This document shows positions 11,759 to 60,912 of a DNA stretch of 64,000 nt, in pieces (within the stretch, counting starts at the first letter, position 1; the number at the start of each line of letters is the position of its first letter). The translations under genes were made by a program, and so were the position numbers. The DNA comes from an uncultured Parachlamydiaceae bacterium (lineage in GTDB: Bacteria > Chlamydiota > Chlamydiia > Chlamydiales > Parachlamydiaceae): positions 32,001 to 96,000 of the forward strand of contig CAVVXH010000001.1 in assembly GCA_963752155.1 (NCBI GenBank), read 5' to 3'. The notes beneath the pieces are model-generated. The model was not told the origin of the DNA, searched no databases, and saw only the letters and a list, made by a program, of their open reading frames with translations.

Positions 11759-11818
11759 CTTGTCCTTGCCTGTCGTCCTTGTTGTCCTTGCTGTCCTTGC
11801 CGTCCTTGCCGTCCTTGC
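11759..11818 (-). repeat. 9-bp tandem repeats (GTCCTTGCC-type) inverted relative to upstream set
   Basis: TGTCCTTGCC..GTCCTTGTT GTCCTTGCT GTCCTTGCC GTCCTTGCC GTCCTTGC. Confidence 0.85.
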
Positions 11819-16779: not shown

Positions 16780-16842
16780 CAGGAATTCCCACTAATTTTC
16801 GTGCCTGCGCACGCGGGCACGAAAGTTTAGCGGGAATTGCTG
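16780..16842. mobile_element. MITE family C with 9-bp target-site duplication
   Basis: CAGGAATTCCCACTAATTTTCGTGC..GCACGAAAGTTTAGCGGGAATTGCTG flanked by GATCGAACT/GCTCGAACT. Confidence 0.75.
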
Positions 16843-21255: not shown

Positions 21256-22038
21256 TTATATGAGCACATCTCCCAATAATTGTAATGCAGATTTCGTTCC
21301 TATTTGAAGTTTGCTTTGGCGACCTTTCATGGTGCTTAAAAATAATTTATTTATTTCTTTAGAAATTTCTGATGGAAGAATTGAAAAATAGGAATCTTTA
21401 TTCTGTTTAGCCAAGGATAATAAATGTGTGACATCCCAGATTTTTTTGGCTTTATAGATATTTTCTTGAATGAAGGATTCGCCACAAATTTTAGTTTCAC
21501 GGTAACGTTGTCTTCCAAAAGCTCTAGCGTTATATTGCATCAGCAAATTTATTAGAAGCACATTCTCTTCATTTGTAGCAGCTCGGTGCAGAGGATTTAA
21601 ATATTTTTGACTGGGAATATCAAAAAGGTAAATGTTTGGATTCGCTCCTAGTTCAAGCAATTTTTTTGCTCCTTTATAGAGTTGTTCCATATCAAGCACA
21701 AGATCTTTTTTGGTTGTTTCGTTACATAAAATATGTAAGGGTGTTAAATGATATAAATCAGAAGTATTTAGAATTTTAGTTCCAATTTTTTTTACTAATT
21801 TTTCAAGCAGTGGGGTATTGCCCATTTTTGCAGCGATTGTTACAGCAGCAACTGAGTCGATACATTCGAGATCAAATGCATGGATACTATTATCAGAACA
21901 ATATTTTTCAAATTTTTCAAAATTGGTCGTGGATGTAATTATTTGGTTGTTTTTGAATAACTTACTCGAAGAATAATAATCTTGAATTATATTAAGTTCG
22001 AAGTTTGAAGAGTCATACATCATTTTAGAATTTTGCAT
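21256..22038 (-). CDS. Ankyrin-repeat protein, candidate effector
   Basis: AAKMGN, LTPLHILC, LLELGANPN, NPLHRAA. Confidence 0.75.
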   Translation of the reverse strand: MQNSKMMYDSSNFELNIIQDYYSSSKLFKNNQIITSTTNFEKFEKYCSDNSIHAFDLECIDSVAAVTIAAKMGNTPLLEKLVKKIGTKILNTSDLYHLTPLHILCNETTKKDLVLDMEQLYKGAKKLLELGANPNIYLFDIPSQKYLNPLHRAATNEENVLLINLLMQYNARAFGRQRYRETKICGESFIQENIYKAKKIWDVTHLLSLAKQNKDSYFSILPSEISKEINKLFLSTMKGRQSKLQIGTKSALQLLGDVLI

Positions 22039-22195
22039 ATTTTTTCCTTTGGGTAATGCTAATATATGTTAGATTAGCATCTTATCGATTGTTAGTCAAT
22101 AAGTAAATGTTGTAAATGTTGGAAATGTTATGCTTGTTTATGTGAAAGATGGGGAGCTGAGTTAAAGGATAACGAGGATAACGAGGACAACAACA

Positions 22196-23139
22196 AGGCA
22201 AGGCAATTATTGTCATGTGATACTCTTTATTTTAACCTATCACTTATTACCTTGCCTTGTCGTCCTCACGATAAGAACGATAAGAACGATAAGAACGATA
22301 GGAACGATAGGAACGATAAGAACGATAGGAACGATAGGAACGATAAGAACGATAGGAACGATAAGAACGATAGGAACGATAGGAACGATAAGAACGATAA
22401 GAACGATAAGAACGATAGGAACGATAGGAACGATAAGAACGATAAGAACGATAAGAACGATAAGAACGATAGGAACGATAAGAACGATAAGAACGATAAG
22501 AACGATAGGAACGATAGGAACGATAAGAACGATAGGAACGATAATTGAATGAAGGTGGAGACATCATTGAACACTATAATGATGAACTCTCATCCAATCC
22601 GAAGAAGCGTTTCCTGAAGAGAGACTCTCCCGAAGGGAGGGCTACTTTGGAGAAAGCGATAACTTGAGGCACCCCTCAAGATATCCTTTCCCCTTTGGGG
22701 GGCCCTTCGGGAGAGAGAGTCTCTCTCCTTCGGGAAACGCTTCTTCGGGATTGGATGCAAACAATTTATTATAAATGATAGTTTACACAGTTTAATTTAA
22801 ACTTCCCTTCCTATCGTTTTTATCGTTTTTATCGTTTTTATCGTTCATATCCTTTTTATCGTTTTTATCGTTTTTATCGTTTTTATTGTTTTTATCATTC
22901 TTATCATTCTTATCGTTCTTATCGTTCTTATCGTTTTTATCGTTTTTATCATTCTTACCATTTTTATCATTCTTACCATTCTTACCATTCTTACCATTCT
23001 TACCATTCTTACCATTCTTATCATTCTTATCGTTGTATCGTGAGGACGGCAAGGACAACAAGGGCGAGAGGCAAGGCAATCATTGATATGTATTAGTCTT
23101 TATTTTAACCTATCACTTATTGCCTTGCATTTTCGTCCT
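22196..23139. repeat. Giant fold-back element 1: DR - (AACGATAAG/AGG)x~31 - structured core - inverted array x~26 - DR
   Basis: Forward array 22268-22544, core 22545-22808 with hairpin 22590-22758, reverse array ~22809-23040, 71-bp direct repeats 22196-22266 and 23069-23139. Confidence 0.95.
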
Positions 23140-23154
23140 TGCCGTCCTTTCTTT

Positions 23155-24945
23155 TTAATCAGTCTTCTTTCTATTGTCCTTCAACTCCCCGAGTAATAAT
23201 TTTGCCACATTAACCGATGGAAAGGTAAAATCAGAAGCATCATAGTGTATTAGCCTATTCAAGATCTCTCTTCTTTCTGCATCGGTCGTATTGGGCTCGA
23301 TCGAAATATCATCTGAAATGTTTATCTCTCCTTTCCAGAATCTAACATCGTTATCCATACTCCAGGGAAAAGTAATTGTCGCTAATTTATTTTCACCTAT
23401 TGTTCTTCCATTTACCAATCCATTTACGATCGGATAAATGCCATATGTATTTTTTATAGTCACTCTAAAGAACTCTAAAGATTTAATATAAATATTGCAT
23501 TCCATTAGGGAACCATTATTTGCTTTTCGCTTTAGAGGCAATCCTATAAGTTGATCCACCGCATTTTCACTAAATAAATGTGTGTAAAGAGTTTGGATGA
23601 AAAAATTGGCAACCCTCCATGAAGCATTTGAAGCAAATTTCAATACTTTGAAGCAGGAAACTTCTTTTTCATGTTCTATGACTAGACTTTCTTCTCCATT
23701 ATATAGGGTTTCAAGATGCTTGTTTTCAGATGCAATCTCTTTTTCAATATCTATGGCATGAACTTTAGACTTTTTGCTATAAGGATGATTGGCATCTGTT
23801 TTTTTAATATCAATTTCTAAGTTTATCTTTTTTATTTGAGTGCTAATTAATTGGCATAATCTTTTAAAAAAAGATAAATTACTTTCGTCATTGCCTTCCT
23901 CTTCAGCTAGATCGAAAATTTTTATCCTATTTACAAAAATTTTACTGAATAAAGTACGCATTTCATTTACCAACTCCTGAGTTGTTAGCTTTTCAAATGG
24001 ATGGGTACTTGTTTTTTCTTGCTTCCATTTGTGGATGATGTTTGAAATAGTTAAGACTTCCATGTTATTCCAACTTAATTCATGTACATTTTTTTTAAGA
24101 ACTTCAAATAAAGTTGTATCAGGATTGTTCCATAGAGTAAGTATAGTGTACACCTCTTTGGAAATTTTGGGATTGTCACCAAATCCTAGAGAAATAATTT
24201 TTTTGATGCTTGAATTTTTTTTTACTTTTTCTATTACTGTTAGGAAATTGGATAAATTTTTTCCATAATAGATACCTTTAGTTTCTAAGTCGAACTGATC
24301 AGCGGTCGTCAAGTCTCTAAGAAAATCATAAAGTGTTTCAGTAAATGTTGTTTTTAAATTATTACTTCTTAAAACGTTTGCTAAGTTATTATATATAACA
24401 TTTAATCTTTTGATTATTCTAGAAACAAGAAGCCCGCTATTTTGAATGATGCTTAGAAGTTGTTTGGTTCGAGTTAATTCAGTAATGCACAATTCAGCTG
24501 CAGATAATTTCATGTCTAACTCTCGATTAAATAATGTTTCAATTTCAATTTGACAAGCCTCATGTATATCTTGTTTTATTATCTCAGGGGAGATGTTTGG
24601 TTTTTCAGCTTGCTTCCAAATGAGTTTAAAATTTTTTTTAATTTTTTTGTCAAATTTTTTTGCATTTTTTGGAGAGGAGATCATTAATGAAGAAATATTT
24701 TGTTTCTGTTCAGATTCTTTACTTAATATAAACTCTTTCGCTATATAATCTCTTTTAGAATTAAGCCTCGGACTAAGGTGTGTAAGTTGTGTGGGTGTTT
24801 CGGGATGTATTTTTAAAGAGGGGGATATTTTCACTGATTTTTCTTGCCAAGCAATTAATCGTTTAGTCTGAAGAGTATCAGGAATTAATTCTATATCATA
24901 AAGATTCATTTTTTGACTTTGATCTAGCTCAATATAATTGATCAT
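23155..24945 (-). CDS. Hypothetical protein (AT-rich, effector-like)
   Basis: 596 aa ORF with GGAGG RBS; no recognisable motif. Confidence 0.7.
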   Translation of the reverse strand: MINYIELDQSQKMNLYDIELIPDTLQTKRLIAWQEKSVKISPSLKIHPETPTQLTHLSPRLNSKRDYIAKEFILSKESEQKQNISSLMISSPKNAKKFDKKIKKNFKLIWKQAEKPNISPEIIKQDIHEACQIEIETLFNRELDMKLSAAELCITELTRTKQLLSIIQNSGLLVSRIIKRLNVIYNNLANVLRSNNLKTTFTETLYDFLRDLTTADQFDLETKGIYYGKNLSNFLTVIEKVKKNSSIKKIISLGFGDNPKISKEVYTILTLWNNPDTTLFEVLKKNVHELSWNNMEVLTISNIIHKWKQEKTSTHPFEKLTTQELVNEMRTLFSKIFVNRIKIFDLAEEEGNDESNLSFFKRLCQLISTQIKKINLEIDIKKTDANHPYSKKSKVHAIDIEKEIASENKHLETLYNGEESLVIEHEKEVSCFKVLKFASNASWRVANFFIQTLYTHLFSENAVDQLIGLPLKRKANNGSLMECNIYIKSLEFFRVTIKNTYGIYPIVNGLVNGRTIGENKLATITFPWSMDNDVRFWKGEINISDDISIEPNTTDAERREILNRLIHYDASDFTFPSVNVAKLLLGELKDNRKKTD

Positions 24946-31185: not shown

Positions 31186-31251
31186 TAGCAATTCCCGCTA
31201 ATTTTCGTGCCCGCGTGCGTGCCCGTGTCCGAAAATTAGCGGGAATTGCTG
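31186..31251. mobile_element. MITE family C with perfect 9-bp target-site duplication
   Basis: TAGCAATTCCCGCTAATTTTCG..CGAAAATTAGCGGGAATTGCTG flanked by TTCTCCATC at 31177-31185 and 31252-31260. Confidence 0.85.
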
Positions 31252-36645: not shown

Positions 36646-36708
36646 CAGCAATTCCCGCTAAACTTTCGTGCGTGCGTGCCCCGTGCCCGAAAATTAGCGG
36701 GAGTTTCT
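36646..36708. mobile_element. MITE family C copy (right end degenerate)
   Basis: CAGCAATTCCCGCTAAACTTTCGTGC..CCGAAAATTAGCGGGAG. Confidence 0.75.
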
Positions 36709-42079: not shown

Positions 42080-42228
42080 AAAAATTAAACGCAAAGGCAC
42101 GAAGGCGCAAAGAGCACAAAGAGATCTTACGCGAAGAATTTTCATTTTTAAAAAAATAGGTGAATTTTATTTTACATGTAAGATCTCTTTGTGCTCTTTG
42201 CGCCTTCGTGCCTTTGCGTTTAATTTTT
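42080..42228. repeat. Perfect 51-bp inverted repeat built from 9-bp units (AAGGCACGA/AAGGCGCAA/AGAGCACAA)
   Basis: Arms 42080-42130 and 42178-42228 are exact reverse complements. Confidence 0.9.
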
Positions 42229-43182: not shown

Positions 43183-44706
43183 TCACACCAATATCAATCG
43201 GGATTTCTTTGTCTCAAGAGTCGAGTTTATTGGACTCAAGGATCGATTTCTATCTATCGCCCGAATGTGTGCTGCAAGCACCGTTAATTTCTTTTTCACC
43301 TGCCCCCAGAAGTGCCATACATGTTTAGTTCGATTCCTCTCGGGTAGAACAAAAGTGACATGGCCTCCCTTACCGTCGGAAATTTTCCCTTCGGGAGAAC
43401 AGGGTGCTTCAGAAAATTGTTGATAACGCCTTGCAATGCAAAGTGCAGCTGCAAGATGGACACTTAGACCATAACGCGTGGCATAGTTAATGCGGCCCAT
43501 AATAGATGTAAATGCCGGATTGACTTGATGGACTGTAATTCCATGTTTGTATGCTCGTGCCATGAGAAAAACAAAAAATAACCCATAGGCAAAACTAGAT
43601 AAAAGGCGTGCCCACTTAGAATTTCCTTTTTCCGTCAAAACTGCCTTCTTTTTTTGGAAATCTAATTTCTCAATGACGATTGGTTTTTTTGTTTCTTTTG
43701 CTCTCTCAATAAGGCTCTTGCAAAGATCACCTGTAAGAGCTTTCAGCTGATTTTTGCTTCTCCCGTAGGAAACCCAAGAAAACGTTTTTCTTTTTACAGG
43801 ATTGCCAAAGCGGTCTGTCTCCATATAGGCAATGTGATCTGTATTAAGGTCAATCCCAATAACTCCACGTTGCTCTTGTGAAACGGAAGCCACTTTTTTT
43901 AAGGCTGTTGAAACAAATACTCTCCAACCTTTTCTATCTTTTTTGAATCGGTAAGACAATGCTTGGCCCTCCGGATGATTGAGGCTTGCAAGGATGGCCT
44001 CATGTCCATAAGCGAAGGCAACATTTTCAATCTCTAGATATTTTCCCCATTTTTCTTGCAAAGCTGTAGGTAAACGTAACCGCAAGCATAGGCTCCCATT
44101 TCTAATACTGGCAGTACATGTTTGATTGCCTGCCGTTTCGTCCTTTGATCCTAAAACAAAAAATTCACTGTTGCGTTTGGCTTCCCATTGCTCTTTCCAT
44201 TCTTGATGTGAGGCAAAACCATTTTTTTCGAGATAAAATTGAGCGAGAAATAGTTTTTTACTTCCAAAACAAAGACGAACACGACCTTGCTTCCGATCTT
44301 CTTCTAAACAAGAAAGACGATGAGACAAGTTCTCTTTGCGTCGTTTTTTTTGATGGAGAACAAATTGTTTTGAAGTTTTTTTTTCTAAGCATTTAATGTT
44401 TTTCTCAAGAGTAGCGATTTGTTGTTTTAGACTTGCAATTGCTTGTTCTTGCCCGCTTTTGCAGGCAGATATTTTTCCCTCAAGGCTGACTCGACAAGCA
44501 TTAAATTGCCTCGCTGTAATGCCATAAATTTTTAGAAAACTATTTTTACATGATGCTGAGGAGCTCTCTCCATTAGCTACTTTTGCATATAAAGAACGCT
44601 CCACTTTACTCAGCAAATAAGCGCAACTTTGAAGAACTTCTTCTTGGTTTTCATTCAGCTGTAGACGAGTTTGATAGGTTAAAGTCATTTCATTTGTCAT
44701 CGCCAA
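43183..44706 (-). CDS. tnpB: IS607-associated TnpB (RuvC), zinc-finger-less clade
   Basis: GIDLN (RuvC-I), IVIEKLDF (RuvC-II), VNPAFTS..VHLAAALCIARR (RuvC-III). Confidence 0.85.
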   Translation of the reverse strand: MAMTNEMTLTYQTRLQLNENQEEVLQSCAYLLSKVERSLYAKVANGESSSASCKNSFLKIYGITARQFNACRVSLEGKISACKSGQEQAIASLKQQIATLEKNIKCLEKKTSKQFVLHQKKRRKENLSHRLSCLEEDRKQGRVRLCFGSKKLFLAQFYLEKNGFASHQEWKEQWEAKRNSEFFVLGSKDETAGNQTCTASIRNGSLCLRLRLPTALQEKWGKYLEIENVAFAYGHEAILASLNHPEGQALSYRFKKDRKGWRVFVSTALKKVASVSQEQRGVIGIDLNTDHIAYMETDRFGNPVKRKTFSWVSYGRSKNQLKALTGDLCKSLIERAKETKKPIVIEKLDFQKKKAVLTEKGNSKWARLLSSFAYGLFFVFLMARAYKHGITVHQVNPAFTSIMGRINYATRYGLSVHLAAALCIARRYQQFSEAPCSPEGKISDGKGGHVTFVLPERNRTKHVWHFWGQVKKKLTVLAAHIRAIDRNRSLSPINSTLETKKSRLILV

Positions 44707-45304
44707 TCAACACCTTTGCAGCATCTACAAGTTTTTTATTTTTTCTACTGCGACTACCGTACAAACGAGCAGAAAAAACAGTAATGATTTCTAGCACATC
44801 TTGTGCAAGCTCTTCTTCAAAAGAAGCTTCGTCGCCTTTGTTAATAATAACAACTTCAATTTGCTTTACCTCGCAAAGTGCAAAAATCAATTCTGCACCA
44901 AAACGTAATAAACGATCCTTATGCGTTAATACTAGACGGGAGATTTTTTGCTCAAGAATCAAGTTGATGAGGGCCTTAAGACCCTTTTTTTGGTAATTCA
45001 TTCCTGAACCTAAATCTTGAATAACTTGGAAATCCCATCCTTGTTTTACACAATAAGAAGTCAGAACATCCGCTTGTCTCTCGAGGTCTTTTTTTTGATC
45101 ATGACTTGAAACCCTTGCGTAAGCAACTGTTAAACCGTTATCAAAAACTTTCTTGCCTAATAATTTATCTAGATCATAATATCGTGTTTTTCCCTCCGAT
45201 TTACGATCGGGCATTAGATAGCCTGTCTTTTCCCAACGTCGAAGAGTTTGAATGCTGACCCCTAAAACTTTTGCGGCTTCGCCGACCTTGATAAATCTAG
45301 TCAT
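44690..45304 (-). CDS. tnpA: IS607 serine recombinase transposase TnpA
   Basis: N-terminal MerR-like HTH (AAKVLGVSIQTLRRWE), YARVSS, DLGSG, KDRLLRFG, SARLYG. Confidence 0.95.
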   Translation of the reverse strand: MTRFIKVGEAAKVLGVSIQTLRRWEKTGYLMPDRKSEGKTRYYDLDKLLGKKVFDNGLTVAYARVSSHDQKKDLERQADVLTSYCVKQGWDFQVIQDLGSGMNYQKKGLKALINLILEQKISRLVLTHKDRLLRFGAELIFALCEVKQIEVVIINKGDEASFEEELAQDVLEIITVFSARLYGSRSRKNKKLVDAAKVLIGDDK

Positions 45305-59494: not shown

Positions 59495-59511
59495 TACCAA
59501 GCACAATCATC

Positions 59512-60791
59512 CAGAAAATTGCAGTAGAACAAGCTCAAAGTGCCCTGTGAGTTCGATATGTAGACGTAATCAACTATACAACGATAAGAACGATAAAGAC
59601 GATAGGAACGATAAGAACGATAAGAACGATTGGAACGATAAGAACGATTGGAACGATAAGAACGATTGGAACGATAAGAACGATTGGAACGATAAGAACG
59701 ATTGGAACGATAAGAACGATTGGAACGATAAGAACGATTGGAACGATAAGAACGATTGGAACGATAAGAACGATTGGAACGATAAGAACGATTGGAACGA
59801 TAAGAACGATAAGAACGATAGGAACGATAAGAACGATAAGAACGATAAGAACGATAGGAACGATAGGAACGATAGGAACGATAAGAACGATAGGAACGAT
59901 AAGAACGATAAGAACGATAAAAACGATAAGAACGTTAAGAACGATAGGAACGATAAGAACGATAAGAACGATAAGAACGATAGGAACGATAGGAACGATA
60001 AGAATGATAAGAACGATAAAAACGATAAAAACGATAGGAACGATAGGAACGATAAAAATTATAATTGAAGAAGGTGGTGACATCATTGAACATTTAGTCA
60101 TCGAAGATATCGAGACTGTCTATTTTTTTGGGAGTGTCTAGAATTTTGTGTAAATAAATCTTGAAGAGAGATGTAAAGCATCTCTCTTTTCAGATTATTT
60201 ACACAGGCCCTCCCAAGGCAAAGCGATATCTTGAGGGATGCCCCATGGGAGCAGGGTCCTTCGGAGAGGCATCCCTCAAGATATCGCTTTCTCAAAGTAG
60301 CACTCCCTTCGGGAGGCTGGCCCCCCTTCCAGAGACTCTCCCGAAGGGAAGGAGGGCTCTTCAACTTTCTTCAATTATCGTTCCTATCGTTCCTATCGTT
60401 TTTATCGTTCTTATCGTTTTTTATCGTTTTTATCGTTCTTATCGTTCTTATCGTTCTTATCGTTCTTATCGTTCTTATCGTTCTTATCGTTCTTATCGTT
60501 TTTATCGTTCCTATCGTTCCTATCGTTTTTATCGTTCTTATCGTTTTTATCGTTCCTATCGTTCCTATCGTTTTTATCGTTCCAATCGTTCTTATCGTTC
60601 CTATCGTTCTTATCGTTCCTATATCGTTCTTATCGTTTTTATCGTCTATACCGTTGATCTACAGTAGCAACAGAACGTGTCAAGCTGTGAACATCAATGA
60701 AATTGCAGTAAAACAAGCTCAAAGTATCCTGTGAGTTGGATATGTAGACGTGATCAACGATAAAAACGATAAAAATTAGCGGGAATTGCTG
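59512..60791. repeat. Giant fold-back element 2: DR - (AACGAT AAG/AGG/TGG)x~53 - structured core - inverted array x~30 - DR
   Basis: Forward array 59580-60062, core ~60063-60374, reverse array ~60375-60645, 59-bp direct repeats 59516-59574 and 60700-60758; ends in a family C MITE terminus. Confidence 0.95.
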
Positions 60792-60838
60792 ACAATCTTC
60801 TTGCGATTTTTTTTGTCAATACGGTATTCTCAAGCTTC

Positions 60839-60912
60839 GTTCTCGTAGCTCAGTAGGATAGAGCGGTTGCCTCCTAAGCAGCAGGTCGCGCGTTCGAATC
60901 GCGCCGAGGACA
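60839..60912 (+). tRNA. tRNA-Arg (CCT)
   Basis: Acceptor GTTCTCG/CGAGGAC, D arm AGCTCAGTAGGATAGAGC, anticodon loop CT-CCT-AA, T arm GTTCGAATC. Confidence 0.95.

Follow-up and report, generated by a model that had tools for sequence, protein, structure and literature searches.

Convergent 9-bp arrays in an uncultured Parachlamydiaceae genome as probable gene-less members of a foldback repeat family with a nuclease-bearing form

Repeats that fold back on themselves are known from several systems. In sequences of the REP/REPIN-BIME type (repetitive extragenic palindromes and bacterial interspersed mosaic elements) palindromes are nested or clustered, and with the REP-associated tyrosine transposase RAYT (together the 'REPtron') short intergenic hairpin repeats without a gene occur beside one or a few copies placed in inverted orientation on both sides of a small nuclease-type gene. 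[quoted passage not shown] Foldback (FB) transposons of Drosophila have long inverted arms of variable-number short tandem repeats around a variable middle, and most of them are gene-less. Intervening sequences (IVS) of 23S rRNA hold a small selfish open reading frame (ORF) within complementary arms, and the short tandem heptamer repeats of cyanobacteria (STRR) form intergenic hairpins. Traits of each recur in the family of E1, a foldback element at positions 22166-23150 of a 64,000-nucleotide stretch (the window, G000:C1:32001-96000) from an uncultured Parachlamydiaceae bacterium, whose genome assembly, G000, has 3.13 Mb in 22 contigs, is 80% complete, is rated 4% contaminated and has 38% G+C. 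E1 and a second locus 37 kb away, E2, are probably gene-less, array-expanded members of a selfish repeat family of foldback (nested palindromic) type, the complete form of which bears a nuclease gene. FB transposons share the long arms of short units, the variable middle and the predominance of gene-less copies, but they are eukaryotic and without sequence or protein relation to this family, so that the likeness is one of architecture only. The cassette of the family recalls an IVS and its hairpins recall STRR sequences, but E1 lies outside rRNA, and both the unit and the gene family differ from those of the classical IVS with its four-helix-bundle ORF.

E1 is made of two convergent arrays of the 9-bp unit AACGATARG, separated by a 263-bp core. 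Tandem Repeats Finder gives the left array (22268-22544) a period of 9, 30.8 copies of the consensus AACGATAAG and 94% matches, and the right array (22808-23034) the same period in the opposite sense, 25.2 copies and 89% matches. An earlier reading of the letters, here called the sequence-only reading, had counted about 31 units against about 26 more degenerate inverted ones, with an aperiodic order of AAG and AGG variants; the program and direct reading together confirm this. It had also expected the arrays to fold into one hairpin, and the predicted single-stranded DNA (ssDNA) fold of 22160-23155 is indeed one giant hairpin, with a further hairpin on either flank (minimum free energy -247 kcal/mol vs -92.4 +/- 5.5 in 20 shuffles, z -28.3). 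Regular short repeats are a trait of CRISPR arrays too, but here the units are contiguous, the two arrays face each other and, as had been stated, no spacers lie between units; no cas context is seen among the ORFs around E1. The terminal inverted repeats of E1 are its arms together with the O3 modules, which precede the arms on both sides. The parts of E1 are as follows.

22166..22262, no strand: flank hairpin H1, with stems of 9-bp AAGGACRRC-type units (GAGGATAAC/GAGGACAAC...), a ~40-bp loop and a period-9 row at 22166-22191; it folds separately
22247..22267, plus strand: module O3 (ccttgtcgtcctcacgat), the junction 5' of the left arm
22268..22544, plus strand: left arm, ~31 AACGATARG units, AAG and AGG variants in aperiodic order
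22545..22590, plus strand: module T (aattgaa(t)gaaggtggagacatcattgaaca...), which forms the core's array-proximal part, common to E2 and 16 other sites
22591..22757, no strand: G+C-rich imperfect palindrome of the core, with small hairpins, GAAG/TTCG-type loops and a self inverted match of 74% over 167 bp; it includes the 51 bp with 88% identity to a piece of the E2 core
22758..22807, plus strand: A+T-rich tail of the core, partly common to the core at G000:C10:258659-258708
22808..23034, minus strand: right arm, ~25 inverted, more degenerate units with runs of AACGATAAA, AATGATAAG and AATGGTAAG
23040..23150, no strand: flank hairpin H2, of the AAGGACRRC family, with loop and orientation as in H1

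E2 has the same plan. Its left array (59580-60055) shows an 18-bp higher-order period with 26.4 copies, and its right array (60375-60645) has 29.8 copies (Tandem Repeats Finder). The cores of E1 and E2 had been called homologous. This holds for the first ~35-40 bp (module T) and for one stretch of 51 bp (88% identity); the remainder differs. Positions 73-112 of the E2 core are 87.5% identical over 40 bp to the 3' tail of an intact gene cassette elsewhere in G000 (G000:C10:276664-276628).

59508..59579, plus strand: left flank, a partial M module (positions ~46-129, O1 included)
59580..60056, plus strand: left arm, 53 units, in which an 18-bp AAG+TGG higher-order unit occurs 11 times
60057..60373, plus strand: core of 317 bp, with module T, then the 40-bp piece of cassette tail, then G+C-rich hairpins
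60374..60646, minus strand: right arm, ~30 inverted units
60647..60792, plus strand: right flank, a full M module (O2'-mid-O1), two more units and a terminal tip ..AAAATTAGCGGGAATTGC of the GCAATTCC-type layer

In E2 this tip occupies window ~60775-60792. A tRNA gene is found at 60839-60912, ~50 bp past it, and is the only match of an Rfam gathering search of the whole window.

The two loci had been taken as evidence of a dispersed element family and not of a local microsatellite, a view that understated the case. A scan of G000 for in-phase 9-mers (up to 2 mismatches) finds 109 arrays of at least 3 units, and when neighbours less than 700 bp apart are paired, 28 convergent pairs (cores of 9-488 bp) and 10 divergent pairs are obtained. 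The convergent cores vary by locus in length and in module type, whereas the divergent pairs have a constant middle module M of ~117 bp, which reads O2'-middle-O1; divergent loci are thus the same arms joined via their O ends. Placement of the modules is strict: in arrays of at least 4 units (77 arrays, 1215 units), O1, O2 or O3 lies 5' of the sense strand of the unit in 54/77 and 3' in 0/77, and T, K1, K2 or K3 lies on the 3' side in 41/77 and on the 5' side in 0/77. The array is therefore a polar arm and not a free microsatellite. E1 fits this rule, since its left arm runs from O3 to T and its right arm has O3 upstream. Module T occurs at 18 T-like sites of G000, namely E1, E2 and 16 others. 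The most extreme member of the family (G000:C6:187185-187962) is a near-pure 780-bp palindrome of 9-mers, with 25 units against 57 inverted units around a core of 9 bp. A coding reading of the arrays, in the frames (TIR/TIG)n or (NDK)n, was ruled out by the occurrence of both orientations, the variable length and T-type stops within 39 codons; T itself opens no frame of more than 39 codons, bar one read-through into an array.

Arrays of this kind could in principle be mis-assembled low-complexity sequence; in two relatives (G143 and G279) contigs of short-read metagenome-assembled genomes (MAGs) end inside arrays. Against such an artefact stand the same architecture at all 38 paired loci, on 14 contigs, with differing, non-periodic unit orders and unique flanks on both sides, and related elements in independent assemblies. 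Mis-assembly is therefore a most improbable source of the arrays.

The family is connected with a gene by the modules on the 3' side of its arms. Module K1 reads AACG-ATG-GAA-GAA-GAC... and is the 5' end of a GxxExxY gene; thus, the final unit of the array includes the start codon. K3 is the C-terminus and tail of the same gene, and K2 is an internal-deletion form. One intact cassette is present in G000.

G000:C10:276400-277480: intact cassette, in the order O2, 28 units, ORF of 140 codons, short tail (..gggagtgtctagacttttgtaaataatcttgaaaagcg), 8 inverted units, O1'

Its arms share the unit AACGATARG and the consensus with those of E1. The protein, P0001 (gene at G000:C10:276677-277099, minus strand), matches TIGR04256 'GxxExxY protein' (1.1e-40, 138.7 bits, cut-off 35) and PF13366 PDDEXK_3 (2.7e-39, 135.4 bits, cut-off 22), and both the GxxExxY and the D..ExK motif are intact in it; across 63 homologues these motifs show conservation of at least 90%. 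The ratio of nonsynonymous to synonymous substitution rates (dN/dS) of its gene is 0.07-0.12 in the 4/10 relative pairs with computable dS (dS is saturated in 5). PF13366 has 20 matches in G000 at E<=0.01, at least 9 of which are fragments within convergent cores, and a profile of the 63 homologues matches 13/28 convergent cores at E<=0.01. The copies in G000 thus form a graded series: the intact cassette stands at one end, internally deleted copies follow, and foldbacks without a gene, E1 among them, stand at the other. That E1 belongs to the foldback family of the GxxExxY cassette is very likely; judged from the sequences, what ties E1 to the cassette is the arms and the polarity of these arms, and the core has no part in the tie. 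The sequence-only reading had denied the element a transposase. E1 itself does lack a gene; the complete form of the family carries the gene for a GxxExxY nuclease of the PD-(D/E)XK kind.

The association of arms and gene is also seen in relatives. The exact three-unit 27-mer is found in 2/41 genomes (G000 and G037), and the exact two-unit 18-mer in 20/401 genomes of the order, with 444 matches in G000 and 22 in the runner-up; a reversed 18-mer used as control has 0 matches outside G000 in the 401 genomes. In G001, of the same genus, the order is O1, 3 units, K3, an internally deleted gene, K1', 2-3 inverted units and O2', and in G037 and G305 this layout recurs, with short arms that enclose either an intact gene or a remnant of one. 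The short-arm copy of G001 implies that the element predates the expansion of its arrays. Since contigs of G143 and G279 break off within arrays, long arms may hide in short-read assemblies, and G000 is not necessarily alone in the expansion. When species-representative genomes were scanned with P0001, 144 relatives were obtained; the best 80 were fetched, and 73 of these could be tested, the other 7 having short flanks or N. When the 135 bp before the start was compared with the 340 bp after the stop, and a locus was counted if its score was at least 3 above the best of 20 shuffles, an inverted repeat bracketed the GxxExxY gene at 52/73 loci, against 9/73 in a direct-orientation control. In one Parachlamydiales MAG the gene is part of a multi-copy element with sharp boundaries, which is 716-719 bp long and has 15-bp terminal inverted repeats; here AATGATNNN units stand 5' of the start and inverted units 3' of the stop; both ends are present at 10/13 loci, and one copy has 1232 bp. 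The type of the upstream unit follows the tiers of protein identity to P0001, a pattern that kinship alone could also give.

AACGAT: 13 loci, 72-81% identity to P0001
AATGAT: 18 loci, 63-76% identity to P0001
xAGGAT-like: 11 loci, 47-75% identity to P0001
ACxGAT-like: 6 loci, 48-51% identity to P0001
no upstream unit with at least 2 copies: 29 loci, 45-74% identity to P0001
upstream N-masked: 1 locus, 71% identity to P0001

Two further kinds of palindrome surround or adjoin the AACGATARG arms. Module O3 equals a single unit of a second 9-bp family, AAGGACRRC. In G000 this family counts 76 arrays of at least 3 units, mostly as facing pairs 50-100 bp apart (for instance G000:C10:368429-368778 and window 11772-11816), and no partner gene was found for it. 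The flank hairpins H1 and H2 of E1 are members of it and form direct repeats of 71 bp that are 87% identical (the H2 part is 23069-23139), with a third copy at G000:C11:214665-214731. A third layer, also palindromic, encloses other AACGATARG foldbacks and has tips of the form CA-GCAATTCCCGCTAATTTTCG(TGCCCG)n (GCAATTCCCGCTAATTTTC tips), of which G000 has 70 when up to 2 mismatches are allowed and 109 when up to 3 are. Facing tip pairs are flanked by a direct repeat of at least 8/9 bases in 15/26 cases, against a control fraction of 0.0056, and the pairs with a duplicated target include elements of ~0.9-1 kb with AACGATARG arms around M (C7:60670-61652 and C15:118588-119499). These 9-bp duplications indicate that the outer GCAATTCC layer transposed with a 9-bp staggered cut. 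Minimal palindromes of 59-62 bp, GCAATTCCCGCTAATTTTCG(TGCCCG)n..GGAATTGC, lie in the window at 31188-31249, 16782-16840 and 36648-36707; the first has a perfect flanking direct repeat by eye, TTCTCCATCT (9/9 in the 9-base test window TCTCCATCT), and the other two score 8/9 and 6/9.

This layer has the terminal inverted repeats and the duplicated 9-bp targets that cut-and-paste elements typically show, and AACGATARG arms in two of its copies; it would also be expected of an ordinary MITE family whose DDE-type transposase is missing from the assembly. The GxxExxY gene would then be cargo and the arrays internal variable-number tandem repeats. Internal deletion, by which MITEs originate, resembles what is seen in the K2-type and G001 copies, and an assembly that is only 80% complete and in 22 contigs leaves room for a missing gene. 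However, no transposase gene is found between the third-layer tips of G000, and the sole DDE_Tnp_1 match above the cut-off is a lone ORF of 562 aa at a contig start (G000:C5:688-2376) with no third-layer tips near it. (This ORF is Ala/Arg/Gly-rich, looks foreign to a genome of 38% G+C and may be contamination or a recent transfer.) The multi-copy ORFs of G000 are IS607-like TnpA/TnpB or belong to no known family, and in relatives the gene travels together with its inverted arms, in a unit without any further coding content. A parent with the same arms does exist, in the intact cassette, and its protein is not a known transposase. The family further differs from MITEs in that the inverted ends flanking its gene are expandable arrays, that no DDE transposase parent is found and that E1 is without a target duplication. 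An ordinary MITE family is accordingly an improbable account of the whole.

Mobilisation by a RAYT, a Y1 HUH transposase, as in REPIN/BIME-like repeats, would agree with the BIME-like nested palindromes and with the two Y1_Tnp matches above the cut-off found in G000. Nevertheless, both Y1_Tnp genes go with a different repeat: the RAYT-like gene, of 341 aa (G000:C10:595900-598000), has on both sides several copies of another nested palindrome (gccattggtgcctgacctg..., gccattggtgcctgacctgatattctgacatttgcc...) and is not flanked by AACGATARG or GCAATTCC sequences, which upholds the earlier statement that E1 is not a standard REP/BIME. Y1 transposition (IS200/IS605) leaves no 9-bp duplications, unlike the transposition of the outer layer. 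Moreover, REP sequences have a fixed length of ~20-35 bp, whereas the arms here are 9-bp tandem arrays of 1-2 to 57 units, and the partner of the arms is a PD-(D/E)XK GxxExxY protein and not a Y1 HUH transposase. Mobilisation by RAYT is therefore highly unlikely.

Several observations weigh against the assignment of E1 and E2 to the family of the nuclease cassette, or against the history proposed for it. Neither core has a GxxExxY profile match even at E<=10, and E2 retains just 40 bp of the cassette tail, for which reason both are filed as gene-less derivatives and not as cassettes. Module T and its extensions (T/Z modules) were sought in two same-genus genomes and three other relatives and not found, so that T-type foldbacks are linked to the gene through nothing but common arms and a common polarity. 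Direct reading of the E1 flanks shows no GCAATTCC-layer tip and no target-site duplication. An empty site for E1 was not found in G001, G002 or 3 other members of the Parachlamydiaceae; since the flanking genes are only ~31% conserved within the genus, it is not recoverable there (the best matches of the flanking 596-aa protein in G001 and G002 are only ~31% identical, and the 3 other members have none). The multi-copy unit of the Parachlamydiales MAG has no clear target duplication, in contrast to the GCAATTCC layer; mobilisation may involve more than a single activity. Binding or cutting of the arms by the GxxExxY protein, and with it mobilisation by the nuclease, is putative. Finally, the array lengths are those of one assembly: among public runs the best share of locus words is 0.07, and the contigs of X1, X2, X4 and X11 fall on the arrays only, not on the flanks or core.

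The arms themselves preserve traces of how they grew. Across 1204 parsed units, positions 1, 2, 4, 5, 6 and 7 are constant at >=97%, position 3 is C in 91%, and positions 8 (A.74 / G.22) and 9 (G.65 / A.33) vary; the constancy is partly by construction because the parse tolerated up to 3 mismatches. When units of equal rank, counted from the core, are compared, 20.1% are identical, against 22.0 +/- 2.1% after shuffling of the unit order, and the similarity of arm composition is 0.680 within and 0.676 between elements (p~0.46, from the 15 elements in which each arm has at least 10 units). Arm lengths are unequal (for instance 31/25, 53/30 and 25/57 units), and local runs of variants are present, such as five AATGGTAAG in the right arm of E1 and eleven AAG+TGG pairs in the left arm of E2. 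Unequal, unmirrored arms with local runs bear the mark of local duplications, through slippage or unequal exchange, that took place independently, and not that of fold-back copying or template-directed addition.

The sequence-only reading had inferred a mobile or programmed repeat-addition system, in which the core is a template or recognition RNA/ssDNA and the arrays grow by slippage or iterative templated synthesis. That the arrays point at a strongly structured core speaks for programmed, templated addition, as does a unit so uniform that six of its nine positions reach >=97% across the 1204 units, to the extent that this is not due to the parse. Its supposed template is nonetheless inconstant, for the cores, of 9-488 bp and of unrelated module types, shrink to 9 bp in one element and consist of a protein-coding gene in the complete copies. 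The arms are unequal and unmirrored with local variant runs, and a reverse transcriptase gene, which the same reading had suggested looking for, is absent as far as G000 (80% complete) goes: RVT_1 has 0 matches, and none among the ORFs around E1. Programmed addition thus has hardly any likelihood left.

In place of programmed addition, the following history of the selfish foldback family would account for the observations. The complete form comprises an O module, an AACGATARG array that runs into the start of a ~140-aa GxxExxY PD-(D/E)XK nuclease gene, a short 3' tail and an inverted array, and the arrays are its arms. Its arms may have been lengthened to 25-57 units by replication slippage or unequal exchange, each on its own, and the mosaic of modules may have been produced by recombination inside the shared arrays. 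Gene-less copies would have been moved, now or formerly, in trans by an arm-recognising enzyme, for which the GxxExxY nuclease is the most plausible candidate. That the nuclease moves the arms is suggested by their accompanying its gene and is a tentative proposal, somewhat under even chances. A bolder version, in which the 9-bp units are iterated recognition sites of the nuclease, which mobilises its own cassette and the gene-less foldbacks, and in which the arms grow by nuclease-provoked break and repair, is unlikely, if slightly less so than an ordinary MITE family. If it were true, the family would represent a nuclease-based class of prokaryotic foldback transposon that uses neither a DDE nor an HUH enzyme nor a serine or tyrosine recombinase, and array growth would be driven by the element and not by passive slippage.

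GxxExxY/PDDEXK_3 proteins are widespread, and G000 holds the whole series of decay, with an intact cassette under purifying selection, deleted copies and gene-less foldbacks with arms of 1-2 to 57 units, together with strict arm polarity and an outer layer with target duplications. The presence of this series in one genome makes the role of the GxxExxY protein directly testable on defined DNA substrates. The AACGATARG arrays also explain breaks in short-read chlamydial MAGs. In the searchable literature, with subscription journals outside its coverage, no description of a GxxExxY foldback cassette was found; PDDEXK_3 is entered as 'Unknown' with 'multiple transfers' in a classification table (PMC3424549), and GxxExxY appears as an incidental annotation (PMC8934634).

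At its present site E1 is most likely an inert passenger, an overgrown relic between two co-oriented genes. It fills the spacer from the stop of the ORF at 23155-24945 (minus strand) to the start of the ORF at 21256-22038 (minus strand), and the end of H2 is 5 bp from the stop codon of the former. This position and the extreme stability of the fold would suit a hairpin that serves the host as a terminator, an insulator or an RNase III processing site, possibly a co-opted selfish repeat. Core and arm lengths are, however, unconserved among loci, and no array-scale element is present in the same-genus genomes. E1 has no Rfam match (an E-value search of 22100-23200 gives only sub-threshold miRNA-precursor-like matches, on H2), and a promoter and terminator scan finds sites no commoner than in shuffles. 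A service to the host is therefore improbable, more so than a MITE origin.

Other repeats and mobile genes share the window with E1 and E2. At 42090-42218, arrays of an 8-bp unit (CAAAGGCA / GCACAAAG type) face each other; units of this type also enclose, at G000:C6:157328-157669, an intact GxxExxY gene from another subfamily, and at G000:C4:110655-110981 they stand before a GxxExxY gene. An IS607-like pair occupies 43183-45304 (minus strand), in which an ORF of 204 aa, with a MerR-type helix-turn-helix and a serine-recombinase (Resolvase) domain, overlaps a TnpB-like ORF of 505 aa (NF040570 at 6.5e-14, below the cut-off); each ORF of the pair has ~6 copies in G000.

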